Shown here one piece after another: positions 21,305 to 63,994 of a stretch of DNA of 64,000 nt (position 1 is its first letter; every line of letters begins with the position of its first letter). The notes below the pieces were generated by a model. The model was not told the origin of the DNA, did no database searches, and was given only the letters and a program-made list of their open reading frames with translations. The position numbers and the translations under genes are program-made. This DNA is from Escherichia phage ECML-123-2. The DNA lies in the sequence record OL631480. One strand, 5' to 3'.

Positions 21305-21334
21305 ATAGTACCATAGAAGAACAGGGATGTAAAC
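21305..21334 (-). promoter_or_regulatory. T4-type early promoter (conserved family member)
   Basis: minus GTTTACatccctgttcttctatggTACTAT with conserved upstream ATTCCCTAAAAATTTTTTCACAAAACT. Confidence 0.5.
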
Positions 21335-43557: not shown

Positions 43558-43587
43558 ATTATACCACATCCTTGTGGCAAAGTAAAC
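43558..43587 (-). promoter_or_regulatory. T4-type early promoter, near-identical to the rIIA.1 promoter
   Basis: minus GTTTACtttgccacaaggatgtggTATAAT. Confidence 0.5.
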
Positions 43588-44606
43588 TAGTTTAGTGCAT
43601 TTAGTGCATTGTTCAGTTTAGAACGTTGCTTCGTAAGATTTTTGACTTTTTCTTGAGCTTTTTCTAGCATCTTTTCAGCTTCTAACACTTCATTAGTTGC
43701 TTTAACGAGTTCATCATCTACTGCCTTGATAGACTTCTCAATCGCATCCGCGTGCCATTTTTCAACAGGTTTAAGACTCGGATTTTCAACAGGAAGAAAA
43801 TTCACTTTATTGAATTTCCATGTATCTTTATTACCTGAACTATACATCCAAAATTTAGGATCGTTTGATGAGTAATTGGATAAATTTAAGATATCTTGCA
43901 CTTCCTGCTTTTTCTCTTGCGGGACTTCGTCCTTTCTCAAAAAATCGTATTTAAATGAAACGATCATATCAAGTTCATACGTTGTTGTATGTTCCCAATT
44001 TCGCTCAAAACGAGGTAAAATCTTAGACTGAACCGCGGCAACTACATCCATATACTTAAATGCTTCTGTCAACTGTGATTTAAGGCATTCACAAATTGAA
44101 AGAGAATTTTTTGTATTAGGTTTAAAGCTAATTCGTGCAGTTCTGTTATTTTCTTTTAATGGTCTTACTTCCATCTGAAGAGTATAACCATCAAATTTCA
44201 GATTCTTTAAGTTAATATCAGAACCTTTTAATCGACTAGCCGTCGACAAAATTTGCTTTAATTGTTTACGGAATAGAGCAATAAATCTCCACTCAATACG
44301 ATAATGATTTGGATTGAAAAATCCAGATGATAAATCGACCTTACTCTGACCAACACCTTGAACAAATAGAGGATTTTTATAATCAATAGTTTTACAGAAA
44401 TCAGTGAGCTGCTCACGAGCAGTCATTTGTGTAATATACCCCGCTTTACTAAAATGACGTAATAATTCACTGCTATTTAGATATTTAAAGTGAATAGCAC
44501 GATTAACTTTATCAGGGTCTAAATTATTTTCACACAAAAATGTCATAACATTACGAGTATCGCTGCCAGTACGAACCATATCTTCAATTTGAGAACGAGT
44601 TTTCAT
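43587..44606 (-). CDS. hypothetical protein with C-terminal coiled coil (paralog family member 3)
   Basis: 339 aa; motif FRKQLKQILSTASRLKG. Confidence 0.6.
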   Translation of the reverse strand: MKTRSQIEDMVRTGSDTRNVMTFLCENNLDPDKVNRAIHFKYLNSSELLRHFSKAGYITQMTAREQLTDFCKTIDYKNPLFVQGVGQSKVDLSSGFFNPNHYRIEWRFIALFRKQLKQILSTASRLKGSDINLKNLKFDGYTLQMEVRPLKENNRTARISFKPNTKNSLSICECLKSQLTEAFKYMDVVAAVQSKILPRFERNWEHTTTYELDMIVSFKYDFLRKDEVPQEKKQEVQDILNLSNYSSNDPKFWMYSSGNKDTWKFNKVNFLPVENPSLKPVEKWHADAIEKSIKAVDDELVKATNEVLEAEKMLEKAQEKVKNLTKQRSKLNNALNALN

Positions 44607-44614
44607 GGTGTTCC

Positions 44615-45526
44615 TTAAGATTTAAGTAAATCAACAATTTTAATTAACTTTTCACGCTCAGATTTAGCTTTACTACTCAGTCCAGATAGTCTGAAAATTT
44701 CATCATCATATTGTTGAATAGAAATATTCAGCTCTTCAATCTGTTTATTAAAATAATCAATTTGTTCAGAATGTTTTTCGTTACTACGAACTGGTACAGG
44801 TTTTGTAGGCAATTTAGTTGAACTGGATTCATCCGGGCGATAAATTAAAACACAACTTGAACCAATAGGGCATTTTGCACCAGATGAATATTCTAATGTT
44901 CCAGCTTCTTTTAAAACTTCAAAAGCTAAACAGAGATGATGCCCCATATTAACATAATCTGTAGAGCGAGCTCTGATGTAATAATCATCGCCGCGAATAC
45001 TAAATTTAAAGCATTTAAGGTCTTCTGTATTATTGGTCTTAAAAATCATTTGTTTATCTAGACCTTTAGCTAATCGAGCGCCTAATGCTAATAATCGTCT
45101 TTGATTTTCCCACAAATCCGCAATCATTTGATCGAATGATAATTTTGGCATTAGTCGACCATAAAGGTCATATCCTTTATTATAATTACGAAGGATTTCA
45201 CTCGCATTAATACGAGACAATGCTCCAATTTTATTAAGGGCTTTCATAATGCGATTAGATAAACTCATTCCAGATCCGTTTGTTCGCTGCAAATGTTTTT
45301 CTAATCCAAATCCAATATCAACTTTAAACTTATCTAAAATTTCTGCATGAACATCTCTGTCAATAACATTCAAATCCAAAGTTGAGTTAAATCTATGAAA
45401 AAATTTATCTGGCTCTGCACTGCGAAATACAGTCCATTCATTCATCATTTTTTTATTAACTAAAGATTTAATTACTGCATTGACATTATTAATTACTACT
45501 GACATATTTTCCTCACTCAATTTCAA
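44615..45526 (-). CDS. hypothetical protein with C-terminal coiled coil (paralog family member 4)
   Basis: 303 aa; motif NQRRLLALGARLAKG. Confidence 0.6.
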   Translation of the reverse strand: MKLSEENMSVVINNVNAVIKSLVNKKMMNEWTVFRSAEPDKFFHRFNSTLDLNVIDRDVHAEILDKFKVDIGFGLEKHLQRTNGSGMSLSNRIMKALNKIGALSRINASEILRNYNKGYDLYGRLMPKLSFDQMIADLWENQRRLLALGARLAKGLDKQMIFKTNNTEDLKCFKFSIRGDDYYIRARSTDYVNMGHHLCLAFEVLKEAGTLEYSSGAKCPIGSSCVLIYRPDESSSTKLPTKPVPVRSNEKHSEQIDYFNKQIEELNISIQQYDDEIFRLSGLSSKAKSEREKLIKIVDLLKS

Positions 45527-45920
45527 TTTTACTAAATATACAGAATAAGATGGAACAGACTATATAAGCACCACACACAGATTGAACTAATACCATTCCA
45601 AAGAACCAAACAATATTATCAAACAATGTCTGTTTTACGTCGAAAGGACGTAAACTTACAGTAATATTATCACCTTTTTCTATTGAAGAATACATCTCTG
45701 GGGAAATATATTCACTAAATCTATAACCATCTTTGAGTTCATATACGGCAATAAACGATAAACTAGACCCTTTTCCTTGTGTTCCTGTAATGGTATTAAC
45801 TACAGTAACATCATAATCTTTATAATGCATATAATCATTAATTGCGTAATAACCATATGCAATTACTACACATAAACAACATATCAATAAATTCAATCTT
45901 TTAATTATCAACTGTTTCAT
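45513..45920 (-). CDS. membrane protein
   Basis: 135 aa with hydrophobic segments at both ends. Confidence 0.55.
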   Translation of the reverse strand: MKQLIIKRLNLLICCLCVVIAYGYYAINDYMHYKDYDVTVVNTITGTQGKGSSLSFIAVYELKDGYRFSEYISPEMYSSIEKGDNITVSLRPFDVKQTLFDNIVWFFGMVLVQSVCGAYIVCSILFCIFSKIEIE

Positions 45921-45975
45921 AATAATCTCAATTAAAAGGGCTTAGAACCATTATACCATCCTTGGTATAAAGCGG

Positions 45976-46503
45976 TTATGCGAGTACCGTCTTTAACCGT
46001 TCTTCAAACTTCCGAAGAGTATTTTGGCGTTCAGCTCTTTGCTTTTTGTAAGTTTCAATACGCTCTGAAATGAGAGTGTATCGTTCATTTACTGATTCTT
46101 TCATAAAATCAGGAATTTCACGAGAAGCTTTAATCTCGTCAAATTTATCAATAACAGCTTGCTCTTCAGCAATTAAGTTATCATACATTAAAATATCTTT
46201 CTTGATAAACTCAATATCTTCTTGAGTTACACGAGATAATTTAGATGCTTTATCCTTTTTGTACTGTTCGTTAGTATCACGAGACCAGTGTAATGTACGA
46301 TTTTTATTCGTATTTTTGTAAATTTCTACAATACCGATCTCATCGATAATAACGATCCAATTCCAACGGGATTTGTAAATTTGTCCTCCATCAACAGTGA
46401 TTTCACCTCCGATTGAGATGTCATTAAAGAACTTGCTTTGCGCTTCAGATTTAAATTTACCATCGTTGTAATTTACTAAGTTGAAAATATCTTTAGCGTT
46501 CAT
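45976..46503 (-). CDS. hypothetical protein
   Basis: 175-aa ORF with SD ggagga and early promoter. Confidence 0.6.
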   Translation of the reverse strand: MNAKDIFNLVNYNDGKFKSEAQSKFFNDISIGGEITVDGGQIYKSRWNWIVIIDEIGIVEIYKNTNKNRTLHWSRDTNEQYKKDKASKLSRVTQEDIEFIKKDILMYDNLIAEEQAVIDKFDEIKASREIPDFMKESVNERYTLISERIETYKKQRAERQNTLRKFEERLKTVLA

Positions 46504-46531
46504 TTTCTGTTCCTCCGTAGTTGATAGTTGT

Positions 46532-46561
46532 ATAGTACCACAGAGGAACAGTCTTGTAAAC
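46532..46561 (-). promoter_or_regulatory. T4-type early promoter
   Basis: minus GTTTACaagactgttcctctgtggTACTAT. Confidence 0.5.
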
Positions 46562-46563
46562 CA

Positions 46564-46878
46564 CTAAAAGAAACTTCTTTCACAATTTTTTCCACTGAAC
46601 CATGCGCTTACCGCTTTCTTAGTCTCAGGAGCAGTGTTATCCATAAACCATTCAAAGGCAGCCTTTTTATGATTCTGGAGGGCTTCTCGGGCTTTAATCT
46701 GCTCACGGTCTATTAACACTAACATATGAGCCTTTCTTGTCACCATGGGCTTCTTATGATTTTTTGAATACTCCCAGTCATTTGTCCATCGCATTGTCGT
46801 TGCGAACTTAAATACTGCTTCTTTAATTTTAGTTTCGTAAATTTCACGAGCCTTTGAGTATAACATCATTACCTCCAT
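46564..46878 (-). CDS. hypothetical protein
   Basis: 104-aa ORF. Confidence 0.55.
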   Translation of the reverse strand: MEVMMLYSKAREIYETKIKEAVFKFATTMRWTNDWEYSKNHKKPMVTRKAHMLVLIDREQIKAREALQNHKKAAFEWFMDNTAPETKKAVSAWFSGKNCERSFF

Positions 46879-46967
46879 TCACCAGTTTAATTCTAGTCAT
46901 CTTTTTAATGGCAGTCCATATAATCTATTTCTGAACTGCCTTTTTGTCATAGAAGTCCTCTTATGAA

Positions 46968-47936
46968 TTATTTCAGAAGAGTAACCTCAGCAATTTCTTC
47001 CCAACCGTTTTTGTCGGTCATAATAAAGTCAGCAAGATAAAGAGCAGTACGCAGTGAAACATTGCGTAAACGATTAACATTAACTTTCATCCATGATAAT
47101 GCTTTATAAGTTTCTTCATCAGAAAGACCGCGCTTTTGCATCATGTCAGTTGAAAGAATAACATCTTCAACCCTGACCATAATTTCTTCATTAGTGTGAA
47201 CACCCAAATCCAAATAAACCGAGCGGGACACTAATGCTTGTAAATGTGGAGCAAGTTTAGTACCACGGTCTAATTCGCGGTCAATGTCAACGTTTGTGAT
47301 AAAAACAATCGTTCCTTTAAATTCAAACTCACGCTCAATGCCTTTTTCTTCTAAGTAAGAAGACGCAGTGCTCCAGCAGACTTTACGGGTCTCTCCGGTG
47401 TCCAGAGCAGCTTTCAGAAGATTAAGAATGTCCATATCAGAGAAAACATCCACATCATCAATCAAAAGGACAGAATTCTCTTCACGATTATTCCAAAGCT
47501 GTTCATAAAGACCAATACCAGAGATTTTACCATTAATGCTTTTATATTCAATGTATCCAATATCATTTGCTTTATTTAAAGCTTTATCTAAAGAATACGT
47601 TTTACCAATGCCTGCCGCACCAGAGATAATTAATGAACGAATGTTTCCGTTAATAATACCATTCGTCATCATTCCCATAACATTAAATCTTTTATTAATG
47701 CGGGTTTTCATATCTTCATACGATTCTTTAACTTCTTCAACTTTTACACCATCATATGAAATGTCTGATTTGTAAACCCAAACACCGCGACGTTTACCGT
47801 CAATTTCAACAAAAACTTTACCATCTCCTTGTGCATCTACTGGAGCATTATCTGGGAACCATTCGCCTAAGAGCTCAAAAGTTCCAGAGATTTCTTTACC
47901 GAAGTAGATACCCTTATTGATAGTTACAGTTTTCAT
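46968..47936 (-). CDS. P-loop NTPase (AAA-like), nrdC.10 position
   Basis: 322 aa from ATG at 47936; Walker A GAAGIGKT, Walker B VLLIDDVD; own early promoter. Confidence 0.65.
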   Translation of the reverse strand: MKTVTINKGIYFGKEISGTFELLGEWFPDNAPVDAQGDGKVFVEIDGKRRGVWVYKSDISYDGVKVEEVKESYEDMKTRINKRFNVMGMMTNGIINGNIRSLIISGAAGIGKTYSLDKALNKANDIGYIEYKSINGKISGIGLYEQLWNNREENSVLLIDDVDVFSDMDILNLLKAALDTGETRKVCWSTASSYLEEKGIEREFEFKGTIVFITNVDIDRELDRGTKLAPHLQALVSRSVYLDLGVHTNEEIMVRVEDVILSTDMMQKRGLSDEETYKALSWMKVNVNRLRNVSLRTALYLADFIMTDKNGWEEIAEVTLLK

Positions 47937-47970
47937 TTTATTCTCCAAATCCGTATCAGTTGATAGTTGT

Positions 47971-48000
47971 ATAGTACCATAAAGCTTTATGCTTGTAAAC
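47971..48000 (-). promoter_or_regulatory. T4-type early promoter (conserved family member)
   Basis: minus GTTTACaagcataaagctttatggTACTAT, inside the longer track ORF. Confidence 0.5.
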
Positions 48001-48028
48001 AATTTTGTGAAAAAATTTTTGAAATAAA

Positions 48029-48052
48029 AAAAGGGAGCCCGAAGGCTCCCTA
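48029..48052 (-). terminator. UUCG-tetraloop terminator after the NTase-like gene
   Basis: gggagcccgaaggctccc followed by a T-run on the minus strand. Confidence 0.55.
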
Positions 48053-49066
48053 TCATTTATAATAACTTCGGTGGTTTTCAAGATAAACCCTCTCAAGGAA
48101 GTCATCCCAAAAACCCATGTCTACTTTTTGCTGCATACCGTTCTTAGAAGCTTCAGTAGATGCTGCTTCTACTTGATCGACCACATCTTCCAAAAACTCT
48201 TGAACCGTTTTAAATGGATGTTTACCCAACTTCACGTCGAGAATAAATGGAGCATCTTGGAGTGGATAAACCAAGTCACCAGTTTTGTAAATTTCCAATA
48301 GTTGGAGTCCACCACGGCAAGCATGACTCATAGCTTTCCAGTCAATACCTTCATTGGCTTCGGCCTTACGAGCACGTTCACCGTATTCAGCATCTAATTT
48401 GTTCAGTGACTGCTTAAGCTCAATAAGAGAAAGCGTTGTCTGATATTTACGACCCAACACTGTGTAGAACGTCTGTGGGCCTGTTTTCTCATGATTATGG
48501 AACACCCATTCACAGAATTCGTTTTCTGGAAGACGATGCTTAATATCTTCAACTTTAGTACGACGCTGCTTAATAGAACCATCTTCTTGGTAATCAACCC
48601 ATTGCTCAGGGATTTGATTAACTACTTTCAATACATCACGTAATGCAGCCAAACGAGAACCCTTAACGCCGTATTTAGAAGCTTGCTTACGGACATATCC
48701 TAAATAGGATTTCATGTTAGTCGTATAAAAACGAGAACGGTTGTCTTGAATAAACTTCCACACATCAGGCAAATCAGATTTAACCACTAGTTCAGGTGGA
48801 GTGTGAAGCATATCTAACGCTACAGTTTCACCATCTGCTGCTAATTTAAAGAAATATTTAAGACTGTATAGTTCATGGTCAATATCATCTTTAGTGTTTT
48901 TAGATGATGTGTTGTTAGTGTTTTTACTCATGTGCTCTTTAACATTTCCGATAAGAATATCACGAGCAGGAGGAACAAAGATTTCTTTAAAATCTACATC
49001 AGATTCTGGGGTAGAAGTTCCATAAAGATGACTACCAAAATAGCTTTTCATTACTGTTTTCATCAT
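48053..49066 (-). CDS. predicted nucleotidyltransferase (Pol-beta-like fold), nrdC.11 position
   Basis: 337 aa; N-terminal FGSHLYGTSTPESDVDF fits the GS-x(9-13)-DxD NTase signature. Confidence 0.6.
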   Translation of the reverse strand: MMKTVMKSYFGSHLYGTSTPESDVDFKEIFVPPARDILIGNVKEHMSKNTNNTSSKNTKDDIDHELYSLKYFFKLAADGETVALDMLHTPPELVVKSDLPDVWKFIQDNRSRFYTTNMKSYLGYVRKQASKYGVKGSRLAALRDVLKVVNQIPEQWVDYQEDGSIKQRRTKVEDIKHRLPENEFCEWVFHNHEKTGPQTFYTVLGRKYQTTLSLIELKQSLNKLDAEYGERARKAEANEGIDWKAMSHACRGGLQLLEIYKTGDLVYPLQDAPFILDVKLGKHPFKTVQEFLEDVVDQVEAASTEASKNGMQQKVDMGFWDDFLERVYLENHRSYYK

Positions 49067-49524
49067 TCAGCCTTATATTCAATAACAGGACATACTTTAG
49101 CTTTACGAGCTTTTAAAAATTCAACGATAATCGATTTCTTGGGTTGAATAGGAGGTAAACCTTTATACGCCCTATCAATATTTTCTACGTGTAAAGCATA
49201 ATCCTTTTTCCATTTATAATCTTTATATTTTTCACGCAGTTGTGCAGGAATAACAAATGAACCGATAATAAGTAAAACAAGCAAAATGGCAAGTATAAAT
49301 GCTGATGGAATAAGAGTCCATAAACTACCAAAAATAAGCCATTTCTGTATGATTTCTGCGCAGATGATAGTTAGACCTACGAGTATAGTACATCCGAAAA
49401 AAGAAACGAAAAATGTAGGGATAACAATAGACCAAAAGTATGCGCACAGCGTCTTAGGTCGTTGCCATTCATCGTTAAACAATTTGAATAATTTATAGTG
49501 CCAAGAGTTTTCATTAATAATCAT
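49063..49524 (-). CDS. membrane protein
   Basis: 153 aa with two to three predicted TM helices. Confidence 0.55.
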   Translation of the reverse strand: MIINENSWHYKLFKLFNDEWQRPKTLCAYFWSIVIPTFFVSFFGCTILVGLTIICAEIIQKWLIFGSLWTLIPSAFILAILLVLLIIGSFVIPAQLREKYKDYKWKKDYALHVENIDRAYKGLPPIQPKKSIIVEFLKARKAKVCPVIEYKAE

Positions 49525-49526
49525 AA

Positions 49527-50048
49527 TTATCCTTTCATTGAAGGTGTAACAGTTGTTAAATACTTAATCATAGCTTCAGCTTCTGATTTTGATAATGAAA
49601 TTTCTTCATTGTTTTGACGAATAGAAATAAAATCCGGATGACGGTCACCACCAGCTTTTAAAACACACATATAAGTATCAGTTTCATCTTCAATATCTGA
49701 AATGATTGAAGCAGTTCCACATGAATGTGGTTTTTGATAAATCAATACAGCTTTTCTTCCACCGTTTGACTGTTCATAAACTTTTAACACATCAAACAAA
49801 TCGCTTCTTTTATCAATAGCTAAGATGTTGTTTTCATCTTCAATATTAAATCCTTCGGATACTTCATAAAGTGTCACCCATAAATCACCAATATCAATAA
49901 CAGCGTTCACTTTTCCATGACTTTCAAGAGCATTACAAATTTTCTTAATTTCATCATAACTCATTTTAATAATATCATCTCCTTGAATAAGGAAGATGTC
50001 ATTTTTAAATTCAACACGAATTAAACCACTTCCACTTGAAATAAACAT
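49527..50048 (-). CDS. hypothetical protein (paralog pair member A)
   Basis: 173 aa, C-terminus SKSEAEAMIKYLTTVTPSMKG. Confidence 0.55.
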   Translation of the reverse strand: MFISSGSGLIRVEFKNDIFLIQGDDIIKMSYDEIKKICNALESHGKVNAVIDIGDLWVTLYEVSEGFNIEDENNILAIDKRSDLFDVLKVYEQSNGGRKAVLIYQKPHSCGTASIISDIEDETDTYMCVLKAGGDRHPDFISIRQNNEEISLSKSEAEAMIKYLTTVTPSMKG

Positions 50049-50054
50049 ATTTCC

Positions 50055-50612
50055 TCACTTTGAAATCATAGTTGGAATGACAGAATCGAGATAAGTCTTT
50101 AGCGCAATAGCTTCGTCTTTGGTAAATGTGACAATATACGATCGAAAATCATCAATTTGACGAATAGTTAAGACATCACCATCTTCATAGCATTTTGATA
50201 CGTTTAAAACAGTTTCATCATTCTGATTGCAAGCGTTAGTAATAATAGCATTGCAATTTTTGAGCCATTTTAAACTATGTTTTCTTTCATTAGAATAATA
50301 AAAATATTTAATCTTATCTATAAAACTATCCCAATGGATAACTGATAAACACATTGACTCACTTTTAATATTAAATCCTGGGCATGAAGAATAAAAATGA
50401 ATTTTGTGCTCATCATTGATGCTTACTATTTTATCAGTATAAGGATATTCAATTTGGGTTAAATGAATGATTTCACTAGGCGTAAAATATAGCATATCGT
50501 CTTCTTGTGTCAAACGATACATATTATTTACTTTTTCTATAGCTAATTCACCAAAAAGCGGACTAACTTCTAATACTAATCGTTTCATATTGATTCTCTT
50601 CGACTCACCCAC
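50055..50612 (-). CDS. hypothetical protein (paralog pair member B)
   Basis: 185 aa, C-terminus TKDEAIALKTYLDSVIPTMISK. Confidence 0.55.
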   Translation of the reverse strand: MGESKRINMKRLVLEVSPLFGELAIEKVNNMYRLTQEDDMLYFTPSEIIHLTQIEYPYTDKIVSINDEHKIHFYSSCPGFNIKSESMCLSVIHWDSFIDKIKYFYYSNERKHSLKWLKNCNAIITNACNQNDETVLNVSKCYEDGDVLTIRQIDDFRSYIVTFTKDEAIALKTYLDSVIPTMISK

Positions 50613-50747
50613 AATTACATACTCCTTTGAATAATATCAATAATGTTGTTCACCAGATTATAAGTAAACATTGGATAATTATATTGAATCATCACATACA
50701 CAACAAACAAAACTTTCATTCTCTTCTCCTTGGCAGTTGACAAGATT

Positions 50748-50777
50748 ACTATATCATAATCTTGTCAACTTGTAAAC
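50748..50777 (-). promoter_or_regulatory. T4-type early promoter with palindrome
   Basis: minus GTTTACaagttgacaagattatgaTATAGT inside inverted repeat gttgacaagatta/taatcttgtcaac. Confidence 0.45.
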
Positions 50778-50779
50778 CA

Positions 50780-50953
50780 TTAAATGACGTTTTCAATAAA
50801 ATTCTGAAGCTTTGTGTGAGCATCAACCATGATTTTCATTTCTTCTTTGGCGAAAGCTGTACCTCTTTCCCGAGAAGAACACTCATAGTCAGAAACTGCA
50901 TTAGCATATTCTTCAATTAGTTTCATTAAAAACATCTGCTTTTCAGTTTTCAT
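50780..50953 (-). CDS. small hypothetical protein (57 aa), not in ORF track
   Basis: MKTEKQMFLMKLIEEYANAVSDYECSSRERG...; start overlaps upstream stop. Confidence 0.4.
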   Translation of the reverse strand: MKTEKQMFLMKLIEEYANAVSDYECSSRERGTAFAKEEMKIMVDAHTKLQNFIENVI

Positions 50954-51137
50954 TGTTCCACCTAATCATTTCAAGATATTGAACTAACTTAGCTTTAGAT
51001 TTATCCAAATCCTTTTTAGCTGCTTCTATACCATCGTATGAATATCCTTCACAATGCTCAACTGCTAATTGATATGAATCTATTTCAATATCACGTGCTA
51101 ATTTAATGATTTTTTCAAACTGTTCGCGTGTTAGCAT
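50943..51137 (-). CDS. hypothetical protein
   Basis: 64-aa ORF. Confidence 0.5.
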   Translation of the reverse strand: MLTREQFEKIIKLARDIEIDSYQLAVEHCEGYSYDGIEAAKKDLDKSKAKLVQYLEMIRWNNEN

Positions 51138-51139
51138 AC

Positions 51140-51379
51140 TTACACTCTCGTATTATGATCGATAATTTCATCAAGAAACATATCTAACGCTTCTATAGCA
51201 TTATCAACTTTAGCTTCAAGTTCTTCAGCGCCTTTATTTGCAATGCCTGCCGAAAACCAAGCAAAGTCACTAAGTTCCTCATCTGCTTTGCGAATTAAAG
51301 CTACCAATTCTTTAATTTTATCTGCTTGTTCAATGCTAGTCATTATTCCACCACATATGAAAGAGAGAATATTGCACAC
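51140..51379 (-). CDS. hypothetical protein
   Basis: 79-aa ORF. Confidence 0.5.
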
Positions 51380-51531
51380 GCCATATGAGTTGCAGCTTCA
51401 TCACACATATCATAACGTTTCTTAAGAAGTTCTACAAGTTCTTCACTAGTAACTTCATCCATGTCGACGAAAAAATCACCATTAATGATGACGTAGATAT
51501 TTCCTTCTTGATTGAGTGCTTCAATTTTCAT
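51343..51531 (-). CDS. hypothetical protein (62 aa from internal ATG)
   Basis: ATG at 51531 preceded by SD gaggagaacatc. Confidence 0.45.
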
Positions 51532-51559
51532 GATGTTCTCCTCTTTATCCGACGGTTGT

Positions 51560-51589
51560 ATAGTATCACAGCTCAAATTGAAAGTAAAC
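51560..51589 (-). promoter_or_regulatory. T4-type early promoter
   Basis: minus GTTTACtttcaatttgagctgtgaTACTAT. Confidence 0.5.
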
Positions 51590-51602
51590 TGGTAAAATGA
51601 AA

Positions 51603-53944: not shown

Positions 53945-54393
53945 TCAACAATCACAATTTCTAATTTAGAGGAATATGTATCTAAAATCCCCTCAATAAT
54001 ATCCCAGTTCCCTTTACCTATGCCTGCACCAATCCTAGGCATATAGATTGTAGGTTTAATCAGTTTATTTTCACCAAACTCATTTAATTCTAACATACAA
54101 TTCATTAAAGCGGAATACTCAAAATTTGGCCCTGGTTGAAATTGAGTATAAAGGTTGAAGCAATACGCTTTATGAGTCCTAAAGTATTTTTCATAGACTG
54201 AGTAAGAACCGAGTTTAGTTACATCACCCCATTCAGTCTGTAATTTATCAGCTTCCAAAATTTTAGGGAAAGCTTTGGTTAATTGACCCGCTACGCCTGA
54301 ACCCATAGTATGAAAACAATTGCATCCATGCGCAATATTTTTACCTTCAGCGAAAAGGGCGACAATATCGCCCTTGATATATTTTACAATCAT
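53926..54393 (-). CDS. macro-domain protein (ADP-ribose binding or hydrolysing), tk.4 position
   Basis: 155 aa; AHGCNCFHTMGSGVAGQL and IGAGIGKGNW resemble macro-domain N-x6-GG[VLI] and G-x-G motifs. Confidence 0.55.
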   Translation of the reverse strand: MIVKYIKGDIVALFAEGKNIAHGCNCFHTMGSGVAGQLTKAFPKILEADKLQTEWGDVTKLGSYSVYEKYFRTHKAYCFNLYTQFQPGPNFEYSALMNCMLELNEFGENKLIKPTIYMPRIGAGIGKGNWDIIEGILDTYSSKLEIVIVDWEPLL

Positions 54394-54731
54394 CTAGTAC
54401 TCAATCCTCGATTATAAGAATCTACCAAACGGTCAACCATTGAATGACAAGCGGCTTTATCTTTCTCCTCCGCAACTGAACATTCTAAGGTATTCCACTT
54501 TTTAGCATATCGTTTTAATAATGTATCGTTTTTGTATCTGCTTGATTTATCTCTTTCTCCGTCTTTATATGCATATATTAATTTCTGCGCAAATTCAGCT
54601 TGGCATGCTTTATTTTTCCCACAATAATCCGCGGCAGTACGGTTTACATACTCTCTAATTTCAGTATATGATGTATCTGCTAACGCAGAAAATGAAATTA
54701 ATCCTATACATAAAACCAAAATTTTAGTCAT
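54390..54731 (-). CDS. secreted hypothetical protein (vs position)
   Basis: 113 aa with MTKILVLCIGLISFSALA signal peptide. Confidence 0.5.
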   Translation of the reverse strand: MTKILVLCIGLISFSALADTSYTEIREYVNRTAADYCGKNKACQAEFAQKLIYAYKDGERDKSSRYKNDTLLKRYAKKWNTLECSVAEEKDKAACHSMVDRLVDSYNRGLSTR

Positions 54732-55269
54732 TTACTATTTCCAAAAGTTTATTATTTTTAAGGTAATTAGCCTTTTCTAGGACTTCAGAAGCATATTTAG
54801 AACCAGCTTTAACATTCCATCCCGAATTATAAGAGGATATTGCTTTTCTTATATCGCCCTTATGTATATTTAACCAATAAGAAAGTTCAATGTACGCCCA
54901 GGAAGCTGAATTGGACCGTTTATTCAACATTCTTTTTATTTCAGCATCGGTCATATTATAACCAAGTTCCTTGACTCTCGCTCGCATAGTAGGCAAATAA
55001 TTTTGGAACATTCCATAAGCGTGATGCTTTGGTTTAGATTTTAAATTAACTCCGCCAGAGCTTTCTTGCCATAAAATGGCTGCCATTATATGGCCTAATC
55101 CGCTCTTGTGGATGTTTTTGTGTGTTTTATATTTTCCATCCTTAGAAAATTGTTCCCCGAATTGATACGCGTAACGCATGTTATCGAGTTGGACATTACT
55201 GAAAGTATGCTCGGAGCTATGTGCCATCATTGAAATGGCCAATAGACCAGCGAGTAGTGCTTTTCTCAT
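54724..55269 (-). CDS. secreted lytic-transglycosylase-like protein (SLT domain), vs.1 position
   Basis: 181 aa with signal peptide; ILWQESSGG ... GMFQ resembles the SLT catalytic region. Confidence 0.55.
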   Translation of the reverse strand: MRKALLAGLLAISMMAHSSEHTFSNVQLDNMRYAYQFGEQFSKDGKYKTHKNIHKSGLGHIMAAILWQESSGGVNLKSKPKHHAYGMFQNYLPTMRARVKELGYNMTDAEIKRMLNKRSNSASWAYIELSYWLNIHKGDIRKAISSYNSGWNVKAGSKYASEVLEKANYLKNNKLLEIVND

Positions 55270-55276
55270 GCTTACC

Positions 55277-55738
55277 TCATTGAGTTTTAATTACTGCTTT
55301 AGAAGCCTTTCCTGGTAAACGACGACTATTGATAATTGCCATCCTGCATTGAAGCGACGGGTCTTTGAACTTCGCATTAGGTTTACAAACTGTAAATCCA
55401 AGCCAAAGATTTCCATCTGTGATTTCTAAACGTCCAGGACGGTATTCAACCCCATCAATAAAATCCTCATCAATGTCAGGACGCGGAGGCATACTCAGGA
55501 ATTCATTAACTTCTAAAACATGGTCTTTTATTTTGTGGAATAATTCAAAAACATATGTCTCATCAATCTCCCGTTGAATTGCACGATCAAGAAGATGCTG
55601 AGAATATTTTAGATGAAACGATGAGACCCCTGCTGCTTTTGATGCCTCACGAATCTCATTGTTAATTTGACGAAACTCCGACTCAAAGTGACGACGAAGC
55701 TTATTTCGACGGATAAAAACTTCTGTGTTGATAGTCAT
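55277..55738 (-). CDS. regB: RegB site-specific endoribonuclease
   Basis: 153-aa basic ORF at the T4 regB position and size. Confidence 0.7.
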   Translation of the reverse strand: MTINTEVFIRRNKLRRHFESEFRQINNEIREASKAAGVSSFHLKYSQHLLDRAIQREIDETYVFELFHKIKDHVLEVNEFLSMPPRPDIDEDFIDGVEYRPGRLEITDGNLWLGFTVCKPNAKFKDPSLQCRMAIINSRRLPGKASKAVIKTQ

Positions 55739-55765
55739 GTTATTCTCCTCTTAACTGATAGAAAA

Positions 55766-55795
55766 ATTATACCACAGTCAAGAGGAAAAGTAAAC
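55766..55795 (-). promoter_or_regulatory. T4-type early promoter for regB
   Basis: minus GTTTACttttcctcttgactgtggTATAAT. Confidence 0.5.
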
Positions 55796-55797
55796 AG

Positions 55798-56022
55798 TTA
55801 TTCTTTAAATCTAATCAATTTATTCATAGACTTTGAAACTTCGGCACGAACCTCATGTAGATTTTTGAGCTGTTCAAGACGCTGCGTATAGTAAGCAATT
55901 TCATCTTCTTCGAGACAGTCCTGTGAATCTTCTTTAAGATACCGTGCATAGTCCTGGAAAGCGTTACGGACTACTTCCTGGAAGTCATCAAGACTTTGAA
56001 TTTTCTTAGGAGCAGCAGACAC
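55798..56022 (-). CDS. hypothetical protein (vs.3 position)
   Basis: 74-aa ORF. Confidence 0.5.
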
Positions 56023-56074
56023 ACGACGAGGGCAGTATAATACTCATAACCAAACCCTGCGCTTAATTGAGCCA

Positions 56075-56341
56075 TTAGTATTTTTCCTCTGGTTGGAACA
56101 CAGCACGACAAGCCCACATACTGGCTTCTTTGAGTTTCGTTTTAGCAATAGCTAACTGATCGAGGCTTTCAGCATAATTCTTCGCGAGTTCAAAGTCTTC
56201 GCAATTATCTAGTGCTTCCCAGAATTCATCATATAAAGCATCAAAGATAAGTCCTAAACGAACTTCAGCGTCTTTAATAGCATTTACTTTACCGATTTTT
56301 TCGTCGGTATGTGGCTTATAACCTTTAATATCTTCAATCAT
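56075..56341 (-). CDS. hypothetical protein at the vs.4 position (T4 Vs.4 is reported as the cyclic-oligonucleotide sponge Acb2; assigned by position only)
   Basis: 88 to 100-aa ORF, second gene after regB; start either 56377 or internal ATG 56341. Confidence 0.45.
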   Translation of the reverse strand: MIEDIKGYKPHTDEKIGKVNAIKDAEVRLGLIFDALYDEFWEALDNCEDFELAKNYAESLDQLAIAKTKLKEASMWACRAVFQPEEKY

Positions 56342-56555
56342 ATTTGACTTCCTCACCAGTACATAAATCGTATTCAACTAAACGAATAGGTTCATGAATG
56401 CCATATCCTTGAACAGAAATTTCTGTCGTAGGATAAATTCCATTAATATCACCCATGTTCCATGCTTCGTTAAATTGCTGTTCGCCTGAATTACTAAACC
56501 ACTCGGCGAAAGCATTTAGCACATCTTCAGAACCTTCAATAATTATCTTTGCCAT
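56334..56555 (-). CDS. hypothetical protein (vs.5 position)
   Basis: 73-aa ORF. Confidence 0.5.
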   Translation of the reverse strand: MAKIIIEGSEDVLNAFAEWFSNSGEQQFNEAWNMGDINGIYPTTEISVQGYGIHEPIRLVEYDLCTGEEVKYD

Positions 56556-62413: not shown

Positions 62414-62443
62414 ATAGTACCATGGAAGAACAGGGATGTAAAC
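62414..62443 (-). promoter_or_regulatory. T4-type early promoter (conserved family member)
   Basis: minus GTTTACatccctgttcttccatggTACTAT with the same upstream element as 21305..21334. Confidence 0.5.
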
Positions 62444-63838: not shown

Positions 63839-63914
63839 TGGTCGAGGCAGTAGGGATCGAACCTACGACCTAGGACTTAGAAGGTCCTTGCTCTTCCTTC
63901 TGAGCTATGCCCCG
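63839..63914 (-). tRNA. tRNA-Arg (anticodon TCT)
   Basis: 76 nt cloverleaf folded by hand: 7-bp acceptor stem, D/anticodon/T stems all pair, anticodon loop CUUCUAA, T-loop TTCGATC, encoded CCA. Confidence 0.85.
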
Positions 63915-63918
63915 TAAT

Positions 63919-63994
63919 TGGGGTGACCGATGGGAGTCGAACCCATGACTACGAGAATCACAATCTCGAGTTCTACCAACTGAACTACGGCCAC
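63919..63994 (-). tRNA. tRNA-His (anticodon GTG)
   Basis: 76 nt cloverleaf; anticodon loop UUGUGAU, C73 discriminator, ends ...CACCCCA like bacterial tRNA-His; encoded CCA. Confidence 0.75.

Follow-up and report, generated by a model that had tools for sequence, protein, structure and literature searches.

The phage T4 enzymes Pnkp/PseT and Rnl1 undo the cuts made by the anticodon nuclease PrrC, and they are the textbook example of viral RNA repair. The nuclease RloC excises a nucleotide, and religation alone then leaves a dead tRNA.

A recent study of the RlaP family, an unreviewed 2025 preprint, determined that bacterial RlaP adds one or two NMPs to RNA 3'-OH ends, that it requires a 3'-OH end of the kind made by Pnkp, and that it prefers a cleaved-tRNA mimic and Mn2+; proteins and DNA were not labelled (bioRxiv 10.64898/2025.12.29.696909). 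The enzymes in question, PfRlaP and PaRlaP, are distant bacterial members of the family, their role in repair is the authors' proposal, and T4 NrdC.11 is listed in the same work under RlaP cluster 5.

In this analysis, a 64,000-nt stretch of Escherichia phage ECML-123-2 (record OL631480; hereafter the window) is examined for two neighboring genes, one encoding a nucleotidyltransferase (NTase) and the other an ATPase. Our overall view, which we hold with moderate confidence, is that these are two independent early genes, that NrdC.11 would carry out a fill-in step in tRNA repair, and that NrdC.10 would be an AAA+ ATPase of DNA replication, recombination or a related DNA transaction.

The nrdC.11-nrdC.10 locus

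The two genes are the long-known and already named phage T4 genes nrdC.11 and nrdC.10, and the domains of both T4 open reading frames were reportedly described in a publication of 2006. The first gene (48,053-49,066, minus strand) encodes a 337-aa protein that is 98% identical to T4 NrdC.11 (NP_049709) and is assigned, from T4 identity, Pfam, PHROG and an AF2 model, to the long, phage-type subfamily of RlaP (PF10127) within the Pol-beta superfamily. The second (46,968-47,936, minus strand) encodes a 322-aa AAA+ ATPase that is 99% identical to T4 NrdC.10 (NP_049708). Gene order, strand, terminator and promoter are alike in T4 and the window, as is the intergenic distance (114 bp in T4). ECML-123-2 is a T2/HP3-type relative that lacks the upstream mobD, and no other substantive difference from the T4 locus was seen. 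nrdC.11 is flanked by nrdC.10 on one side and, on the other, by a 153-aa ORF resembling a membrane protein. The label "thioredoxin" that many records attach to these genes is wrong. T4 tolerates the deletion of nrdC.11-mobD.3 (PMC9825161), so the role of nrdC.11 would be an accessory one.

The ORF list gives the ATPase frame as 46,968-48,056 (362 aa). This longer form would start inside the terminator described below, and its extension is absent from all homologues. The start of nrdC.10 was placed at the ATG at position 47,936 because a conserved Shine-Dalgarno sequence, GGAG (47,943-47,946, minus strand), precedes it by 6 nt and all homologues begin there.

Generic scans returned 19 sigma-70 promoter-like sites against 11 expected and two terminator-like sites against 1.7 expected, neither of which is significant alone, so that conservation, folding energy and the T4-specific pattern served as the measures for the signals between the genes. 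An intrinsic terminator follows nrdC.11 (48,024-48,051, minus strand), with an 8-bp GC-rich stem, a UUCG loop and a U7 tract (AGGGAGCC-UUCG-GGCUCCCU and then U7). It folds at -16.2 kcal/mol (z = -4.3), a value equalled by none of 200 shuffles, and it is kept in T4 and in the loci L008 and L010; in L010, where the NTase is 83% identical, the stem is retained through a compensatory pair change. A T4-type early promoter of nrdC.10 (47,971-48,000, minus strand), with GTTTACA, N14, TGG and TACTAT, is kept in the same three places. The early-promoter pattern has 15 matches in the window, all 15 on the minus strand, where 0.15 would be expected by chance. The initial annotation had placed a terminator and an early promoter between the two genes and had concluded that they can be expressed separately, and the fold, the pattern match and the conservation bear this out.

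Inheritance of the two genes

It had also been suggested that the two genes resemble the NTase and ATPase pairs of nucleotide-signalling and toxin-antitoxin systems. In a two-component module of this type, for counter-defence or nucleotide signalling, the ATPase would partner an NTase that synthesises or degrades a signalling nucleotide or serves as antitoxin. The arrangement in T4-type phages is what such a module would look like, as all T4-type relatives with the two genes have them side by side on one strand, the ATPase after the NTase, and both are early genes amid dispensable ORFs. We nevertheless consider the module highly improbable, as nrdC.10 has its own promoter behind a strong and conserved terminator, and the wider distribution of the two families argues against it. 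Adjacency is limited to close T4 relatives, whose NTase shares about 52% identity or more with that of the window (at least 61% in all but one locus), and in these loci the gap ranges from 115 to 2290 bp, the junction taking insertions of up to 2.3 kb. In five close relatives the NTase is present and the ATPase missing. Among 77 distant ATPase loci none has the NTase within 6 kb, the ATPase is absent from about 50 distant NTase loci, and it lies near the NTase in none of 80 cellular loci. Both genes occur in two contigs, at a distance of about 35 kb in one and about 150 kb in the other, and in D491s no NTase lies within 20 kb of the ATPase.

Searches against known defence systems gave no support to the module either. 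Neither protein matched a PADLOC defence model at E <= 1, the CD-NTase family (and with it any cyclic-nucleotide synthase family) was missing from the Pfam matches, and the neighborhoods held no recurrent effector-like gene. The defence-model matches and linked effector that mark CBASS, Pycsar, Thoeris and Hailong-type systems were thus not found, and the same is true of co-transcription and of conserved co-occurrence across lineages, the marks of an operon or module. The RlaP family, whose members extend RNA at its 3' end, is not one of cyclic-nucleotide synthases.

Because a terminator and a promoter stand between the genes and the families do not co-occur in distant loci, we take the two genes to be independent of each other. 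They are neighbors by lineage history and not a two-gene system, and the inheritance of the NrdC.10 family does not follow that of the NTase. What the initial annotation had said of genes, motifs, signals and separate expression therefore stands, but the functional pairing is not supported, since elsewhere the two families are separate or far apart. For genome scans the lesson is that adjacency inside one phage lineage is weak evidence of a functional pair.

The AAA+ ATPase NrdC.10

NrdC.10 is a complete AAA+ ATPase. It consists of an N-terminal beta-rich domain (residues 1-61), an ATPase core (about residues 73-245) and a helical lid (residues 249-320). The Walker A motif, GAAGIGKT (G106-T113, 47,598-47,621), and the acidic pair D160-D161 (47,454-47,459) of the Walker B motif, VLLIDDVD (residues 156-163), span 47,454-47,621 on the minus strand; both motifs had been described at the outset. 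Across 30 homologues of 55-89% identity, K112, T113, D160, D161, N215, R238 (in ALVSRS) and R296 are invariant, and N215, R238 and R296 are read from the sequence as sensor 1, the arginine finger and sensor 2, respectively. The protein thus has the Walker A and Walker B motifs, a sensor 1, an arginine finger and a helical lid with a sensor 2 arginine, and its fold is AAA+. Pfam AAA models gave weak matches only, none of them at the cutoff, and a sub-threshold match to the NCBIfam Hda model (15 bits) was rejected as a match to a generic motif. Compared with the initiator, clamp-loader and MoxR groups of AAA+ proteins (DnaA, ORC/Cdc6, RFC, NorQ/CbbQ), NrdC.10 differs in its 60-residue beta domain at the N terminus, which is peculiar to its family and, even there, missing from many distant homologues.

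The neighborhoods of distant homologues are informative about function. An SF2 DNA helicase is encoded on the same strand within three ORFs downstream in 43 of 80 ATPase loci of distant phages, and a UvsY-like gene lies upstream in 18 of these 80 loci and a UvsX-like gene in seven. Because distant homologues sit between UvsY-like and helicase genes, a role in DNA transactions is likely, and the most likely target of NrdC.10 would be DNA itself or a protein of replication or recombination. It is also conceivable that NrdC.10 has nothing to do with DNA and is instead a chaperone or remodeller of a protein, similar to MoxR/NorQ, or serves nucleotide metabolism. Its place in the nrdC cluster, together with a family member that adjoins nrdAB in a Vibrio phage, is consistent with this possibility, which we regard as unlikely.

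NrdC.11 and its proposed role in tRNA repair

The NTase signature FGSHLYGTSTPESDVDF occupies residues 10-26 of NrdC.11, and within it F10-G11-S12 and D23-V-D25 correspond to the hG[GS] and [DE]x[DE] parts of the Pol-beta motif. The catalytic core (48,878-49,036, minus strand) comprises G11-S12 (49,031-49,036), D23 (48,998-49,000), D25 (48,992-48,994) and D63 (48,878-48,880), all five of which are invariant among 72 homologues with 34-88% identity to the window protein. In the AF2 model (pLDDT 92), which has a KNTase-like NTase core and a helical domain, D23 and D25 open the strand 24-31 and D63 is on a subsequent strand (62-68), predicted to belong to one sheet with it; the model, the invariance and the alignment with the invariant Asp in canonical RlaP agree on D63 as the probable third catalytic carboxylate. 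The Pfam RlaP model matches residues 7-135 (profile positions 23-142 of 249) with an E-value of 2.4e-11 and 44.3 bits against a cutoff of 23, and phrog_388, "nucleotidyltransferase", matches with an E-value of 7e-137. The RlaP match and the weak AAA matches of NrdC.10 indicate that the motifs of the two proteins are not there by chance. The 337-aa Pol-beta-type NTase and the P-loop ATPase of the initial annotation are thus upheld, and the structure predictions for the two proteins, KNTase-like and AAA+, agree with them.

From its sequence, NrdC.11 is a divergent, long-form RlaP-family Pol-beta nucleotidyltransferase. In an hhalign comparison the NrdC.11 set is read as lining up with the GS and DxD motifs and the third Asp in canonical RlaP, and the likeness to Pseudomonas PfRlaP and PaRlaP appears to extend to the combination of an NTase core with a helical domain. 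The alignment of the NrdC.11 family to 18 canonical RlaPs is confined to 82 columns at the N terminus (probability 76%, E 2e-5). In length NrdC.11 exceeds canonical RlaP by about 70-80 residues, only the first 90 or so residues align by profile, and the model places a beta-rich insert at residues 155-209. The C-terminal two-thirds of the protein, insert included, has no characterised counterpart, and the substrate could therefore differ. Searches of PDB sequences with single sequences and family profiles returned nothing useful, and Foldseek found no match to the NTase in the PDB at E <= 1e-3. The activity of PfRlaP and PaRlaP is measured, whereas that of NrdC.11 is predicted.

The link to RNA repair comes from the genes around relatives of NrdC.11, and the cellular genomes bear most of its weight. 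In a sample of 80 cellular genome loci with full-length relatives (32-53% identity), a canonical short RlaP (PF10127, E 4e-75, phmmer) was present in 23, mostly directly downstream, and Pnkp, Hen1, RtcB or an RNA ligase was encoded within 6 kb in 16. The bacterial long form thus occurs alongside canonical RlaP and does not replace it. Apparent fusions of the long and short forms in two loci were rejected as artefacts of alternative-frame ORFs. On the phage side, RtcB or an RNA ligase was found near about 10 viral NTase loci compared with one of 83 ATPase-anchored control loci, and the phiM7 homologue sits between two RNA ligase genes. This enrichment is modest, because most T4-like genomes have one or two ligase genes in any case. 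An HD protein borders the NTase directly in six viral loci, and in a seventh it is encoded 777 bp further downstream. Among NCBIfam models this protein best matches the HD region of the multifunctional CCA addition/repair enzyme (E 1e-8 to 2e-9). The NTase gene followed by an HD gene recalls the CCA-adding/repair enzyme, a class II NTase with an HD domain, split over two genes, although the NTase cores belong to different families and no evidence of CCA specificity was found for NrdC.11-type NTases. In contrast to these RlaP-type surroundings, nrdC.11 of T4-type phages is unlinked to ligase genes: genes for an RNA ligase, Pnkp, RtcB or an HD protein were not found in the window, where nrdC.11 has no nearby HD gene to complete a CCA-type pair, and the vicinity of T4 nrdC.11 is likewise free of them.

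Two other activities have to be weighed against this context. NrdC.11 might nucleotidylate a protein or small molecule and so neutralise a host toxin, in the manner of an MNT antitoxin that AMPylates a HEPN RNase toxin or of an aminoglycoside nucleotidyltransferase. The MntA model (NF047752) reached 13.2 bits, where the cutoff is 60, on a stretch of 18 residues, which is a generic motif match, and no HEPN gene adjoins nrdC.11 in the window or recurs in the neighborhoods. Neither the equivalog score nor the adjacent HEPN toxin gene of a type VII toxin-antitoxin system was thus found. As bacterial RlaP labels neither proteins nor DNA (bioRxiv 10.64898/2025.12.29.696909) and the orthologues sit among genes of RNA-end repair, we judge a protein or small-molecule target to be quite improbable. 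NrdC.11 could instead be a template-independent oligonucleotide synthase like Hailong HalB (PDB 9dbh), its poly- or oligonucleotide products possibly replacing or mimicking a host guard signal, for which we see little prospect. What NrdC.11 shares with HalB is a generic NTase fold (Foldseek E about 1e-2, TM 0.25-0.37, 16% identity), and KNTase and 3c18 score about equally well against NrdC.11. HalB has no sequence-level link to NrdC.11, which Pfam assigns to RlaP; it makes tyrosine-primed poly-dA and has the channel HalA as its partner, neither of which is seen for NrdC.11, and the orthologue neighborhoods carry RNA-repair genes and no HalA-like channels. The stronger form, in which a HalB-fold synthase has no part in repair and its product replaces or mimics the guard oligonucleotide or swamps nucleic-acid-sensing immunity, is very improbable indeed; if true, it would add a new anti-defence enzyme class to most T4-like phages.

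We infer that NrdC.11 acts on RNA and that its role is most likely the fill-in step of phage tRNA repair. Host anticodon nucleases would break tRNA, and the resulting tRNA 5' halves would be the chief substrate. The phage polynucleotide kinase-phosphatase would heal the ends first, NrdC.11 would extend the 3'-OH of the broken RNA by one or two untemplated nucleotides, and a phage RNA ligase would then seal the tRNA. A fill-in of this kind would allow the repair of tRNA from which a nucleotide has been excised (RloC-type) in addition to tRNA that has been cut cleanly (PrrC-type). The scheme shares its phage lineage, and the logic of reversing host tRNA cleavage, with the T4 repair pathway. The classical pathway, however, consists of healing and sealing only, the fill-in being what is proposed here, and nrdC.11 does not lie close to pseT or rnlA. 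A counter-defence role, which the initial annotation had raised for the locus, is plausible for the NTase.

A function for either gene would annotate many genomes, as about 1,500 sequenced phages carry the NTase and about 1,300 the ATPase. If the repair role of NrdC.11 is true, T4-like phages can also counter RloC-type nucleases, and a long-standing gap in the arms race between phage and host would be closed.

The nrdC.11 and nrdC.10 genes and the signals between them

The window comes from a T4-type phage with ~35% G+C and genes on the minus strand. Nucleotides 46900-49200 are 99.2% identical to Escherichia phage HP3 and are matched in 695 phage records, in 491 of which one continuous match location spans 80% or more of these nucleotides. 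The nucleotidyltransferase (NTase) gene, 48053-49066 on the minus strand, is the orthologue of nrdC.11 and encodes 337 aa with 98% identity to T4 NrdC.11. The ATPase gene, 46968-47936 on the minus strand, is the orthologue of nrdC.10 and encodes 322 aa with 99% identity to T4 NrdC.10 over 316 aligned residues. The T4 genes (54343-55320 and 55435-56445) have the same order and are 114 bp apart. A 362-aa ATPase ORF from a mechanical ORF list was rejected; the length of 322 aa is correct because every homologue begins at the ATG at 47936, which is preceded by GGAG (47943-47946, minus strand).

The initial annotation described both ORFs with a terminator and an early promoter between them, and this observation is fully borne out. 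Directly after the NTase stop codon lies a hairpin with an 8-bp GC-rich stem, a UUCG loop and seven U (-16.2 kcal/mol, z = -4.3; all 200 shuffles fold less stably). The hairpin is kept in T4 and two other relatives, and in one relative that keeps it (NTase 83% identical) both sides of a stem pair are changed. Thirty bases beyond it is the promoter GTTTACA-N14-TGG-TACTAT (47971-48000, minus strand), a genuine member of the phage early-promoter set, as the T4 early-promoter pattern GTTTAC-N14-16-TGnTAnnnT has 15 matches in the window, every one on the minus strand, where chance predicts 0.15. Other minus-strand matches include 2418-2447, 21305-21334, 43558-43587, 46532-46561 and 62414-62443; the cassettes at 21305 and 62414 are near-identical, as are those at 2418 and 43558.

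Earlier publications already cover both genes, their domains and the assignment of T4 NrdC.11 to the RlaP family. In a 2006 comparison of T4-like genomes nrdC.10 matched AAA, nrdC.11 matched the COG3541 nucleotidyltransferase, and nrdC.10 was retained in only three of six genomes (PMC1524935). A genome-reduction study lists nrdC.11-mobD.3 as one of the large fragments missing from viable T4 mutants with reduced genomes (PMC9825161). In many GenBank/RefSeq records matching 43587-51600 (e.g. HP3, L001, and T4, L248), nrdC.10, nrdC.11 and other nrdC.x ORFs are named 'thioredoxin' and, in many of the same records, small mobD.x ORFs are named 'molybdopterin-guanine dinucleotide biosynthesis protein MobD'; gene symbols, not homology, seem to be the source from which such names have spread. 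Directly upstream of nrdC.11, overlapping its start by 4 bases, is an ORF (49063-49524, minus strand) whose 153-aa product has long hydrophobic stretches and resembles a membrane protein; the T4 gene in this slot is mobD, which encodes a homing endonuclease. Genes for tRNA-Arg (TCT) and tRNA-His (GTG) at the window's right edge (63839-63914 and 63919-63994, minus strand) presumably open the phage tRNA cluster, which the window truncates.

Adjacency of the NTase and ATPase genes

The initial annotation also suggested that the two genes could form an NTase-ATPase module. An ATPase gene is found within 6 kb of the NTase in 25 viral NTase-anchored loci with NTases 61-98% identical to that of the window, and in one further such locus (L041, NTase 52% identical). 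Wherever both are present in these loci the order is NTase then ATPase, with a gap of 115 to 2290 bp, so other ORFs have been inserted between them. The junction (47937-48052 and its equivalent in the related loci L009-L045) is an insertion hot spot, with a gap of 115-119 bp in the window, T4 and a few close relatives that widens to 306-2290 bp in others; in vB_EcoM-fFiEco06 one of the inserts carries a DUF4031 annotation. The ATPase is absent within 6 kb in five close relatives (NTase 69-82% identical) and in about 50 loci whose NTases are more distant. No NTase was found at any of 77 distant ATPase-anchored loci and no ATPase at any of 80 cellular NTase loci (the best 80 of 156 relatives). 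Both genes can lie far apart on one contig, by ~35 kb (L048/L090) or ~150 kb (L065/L103), and KVP40-like Vibrio phages have the NTase close to rIIA/rIIB and the ATPase close to nrdAB. The lack of co-inheritance, together with the terminator and separate promoter, shows that the adjacency reflects lineage history; a functional pair is not supported.

The NrdC.10 ATPase

No Pfam AAA model matched the widespread ATPase at cutoff (best AAA_14, 23.3 bits versus 27), and PHROGs places it in phrog_1250, function unknown. Among 30 homologues (55-89% identical to the window protein) the Walker A residues G106...K112 and T113, Walker B D160 and D161, N215, R238 in ALVSRS and R291/R296 in the lid are invariant. 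In the structural model (pLDDT 88.7), residues 1-61 form a beta-rich domain ahead of a classical AAA+ core and a helical lid. This N-terminal domain is absent from many distant homologues, whose matches begin at residues 61-71. Among distant T4-like contigs, most of them environmental, a block of UvsX-like, UvsY-like, ATPase, 374-aa unknown and SF2 DNA helicase genes recurs. The helicase lies at most three ORFs downstream of the ATPase in 43 of 80 loci; upstream of it, 18 loci carry UvsY-like and 7 carry UvsX-like genes. In Vibrio phage D533 the ATPase gene is between dUTPase and DNA helicase, beside clamp-loader genes, and in D491s it is between nrdAB and topoisomerase II. This neighborhood points to a putative DNA-transaction role, though conserved core synteny alone could give the same pattern. 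The conserved ~374-aa protein of this block separates the ATPase from the SF2 helicase in many of the environmental T4-like contigs, and its gene directly follows that of the ATPase in a viral locus (L140:2801-3925) and 21 others; it has no PHROG match and may be the real partner of the ATPase.

NrdC.11 and a proposed role in RNA repair

Pfam assigns the NTase to RlaP (PF10127; 44.3 bits versus a cutoff of 23) over residues 7-135 only, and PHROGs to phrog_388, 'nucleotidyltransferase'. A search of 1.84 billion representative proteins gave 3,429 relatives at E <= 0.001. G11, S12, D23, D25 and D63 are invariant in 72 homologues (34-88% identical to the window protein), as are N57, Y132, R231, K244, H248, R251, P268 and K279. 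The confident AlphaFold model (pLDDT 92) has an N-terminal alpha/beta NTase core followed by helices, a beta-rich insert (155-209) and a long helical C-terminal domain. When its family profile was compared with that of 18 canonical short RlaP proteins, only 82 N-terminal columns aligned (probability 76%); by our reading, the GS, DxD and third Asp coincide there with those of canonical RlaP. On these data NrdC.11 is predicted to be a divergent long-form RlaP, its membership resting on the catalytic core.

The biochemistry of RlaP comes from one preprint (Carruthers, Fatma and Huang, bioRxiv 10.64898/2025.12.29.696909), in which two Pseudomonas RlaPs extended RNA 3'-OH ends by one or two NMPs/dNMPs, were inactive on DNA and protein, and preferred Mn2+ and the 5' half of a cleaved-tRNA mimic. 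RlaP partly restored aminoacylation when it acted before ligation on tRNA missing one anticodon-loop nucleotide, and the authors proposed it as an antidote to nucleotide-removing ribotoxins such as RloC; T4 NrdC.11 falls in cluster 5 of their similarity network, flagged as an uncharacterised member.

Scanning prokaryotes at one genome per species gave 156 confirmed relatives, the best 80 of which are full-length and 32-53% identical. A canonical short RlaP was found by phmmer in 23 of these 80 loci (Pfam E 4e-75, whole profile), mostly directly downstream on the same strand, and Pnkp, Hen1, RtcB or RNA ligase lies within 6 kb in 16 of the 80, with Pfam confirming these identities (PNKP_ligase 1e-168, Hen1_L 7e-110, RtcB 2e-132). 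The association is strong because these genes are rare in genomes. The tandem of long and short RlaP (bacterial loci L171, L184, L188, L216, L219, L231, L232, L237, L238 and others) often adjoins Pnkp/Hen1 or RtcB, and no description of two different RlaP-type NTases in tandem in RNA-repair loci was found in the literature consulted.

The context in viral contigs is similar but weaker. An HD-domain protein of ~170 aa with an HHPEGD motif is encoded just downstream of the NTase, abutting or overlapping it (spacing -10 to +39 bp), in six viral contigs (L062, L063, L073, L078, L084 and L085), and 777 bp downstream in a seventh. Among NCBIfam models it matches best the HD segment of the multifunctional CCA addition/repair protein (E 1e-8 to 2e-9), suggesting a unit in which healing and extension of RNA 3' ends are split between two proteins. 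An HD phosphoesterase could make the 3'-OH end required by RlaP; in T4 such an end is made by the Pnkp phosphatase. RtcB is nearby in three viral NTase loci and RNA ligase genes in about seven, compared with a ligase in 1 of 83 ATPase-anchored control loci, and in Sinorhizobium phage phiM7 the NTase homologue is flanked by two RNA ligase genes. No repair genes are close to nrdC.11 in the window or in T4. The context of NrdC.11-type genes in cellular genomes and viral contigs is new here.

The suggestion that the two genes serve counter-defence survives for the NTase only, in the form of an RNA 3'-end fill-in step that NrdC.11 would perform within tRNA repair and that may be the one missing from the T4 pathway; nucleotide signalling does not survive. 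There is a small chance, given its resemblance to HalB, the Hailong-system oligonucleotide synthase, that NrdC.11 is a more unusual oligonucleotide synthase.
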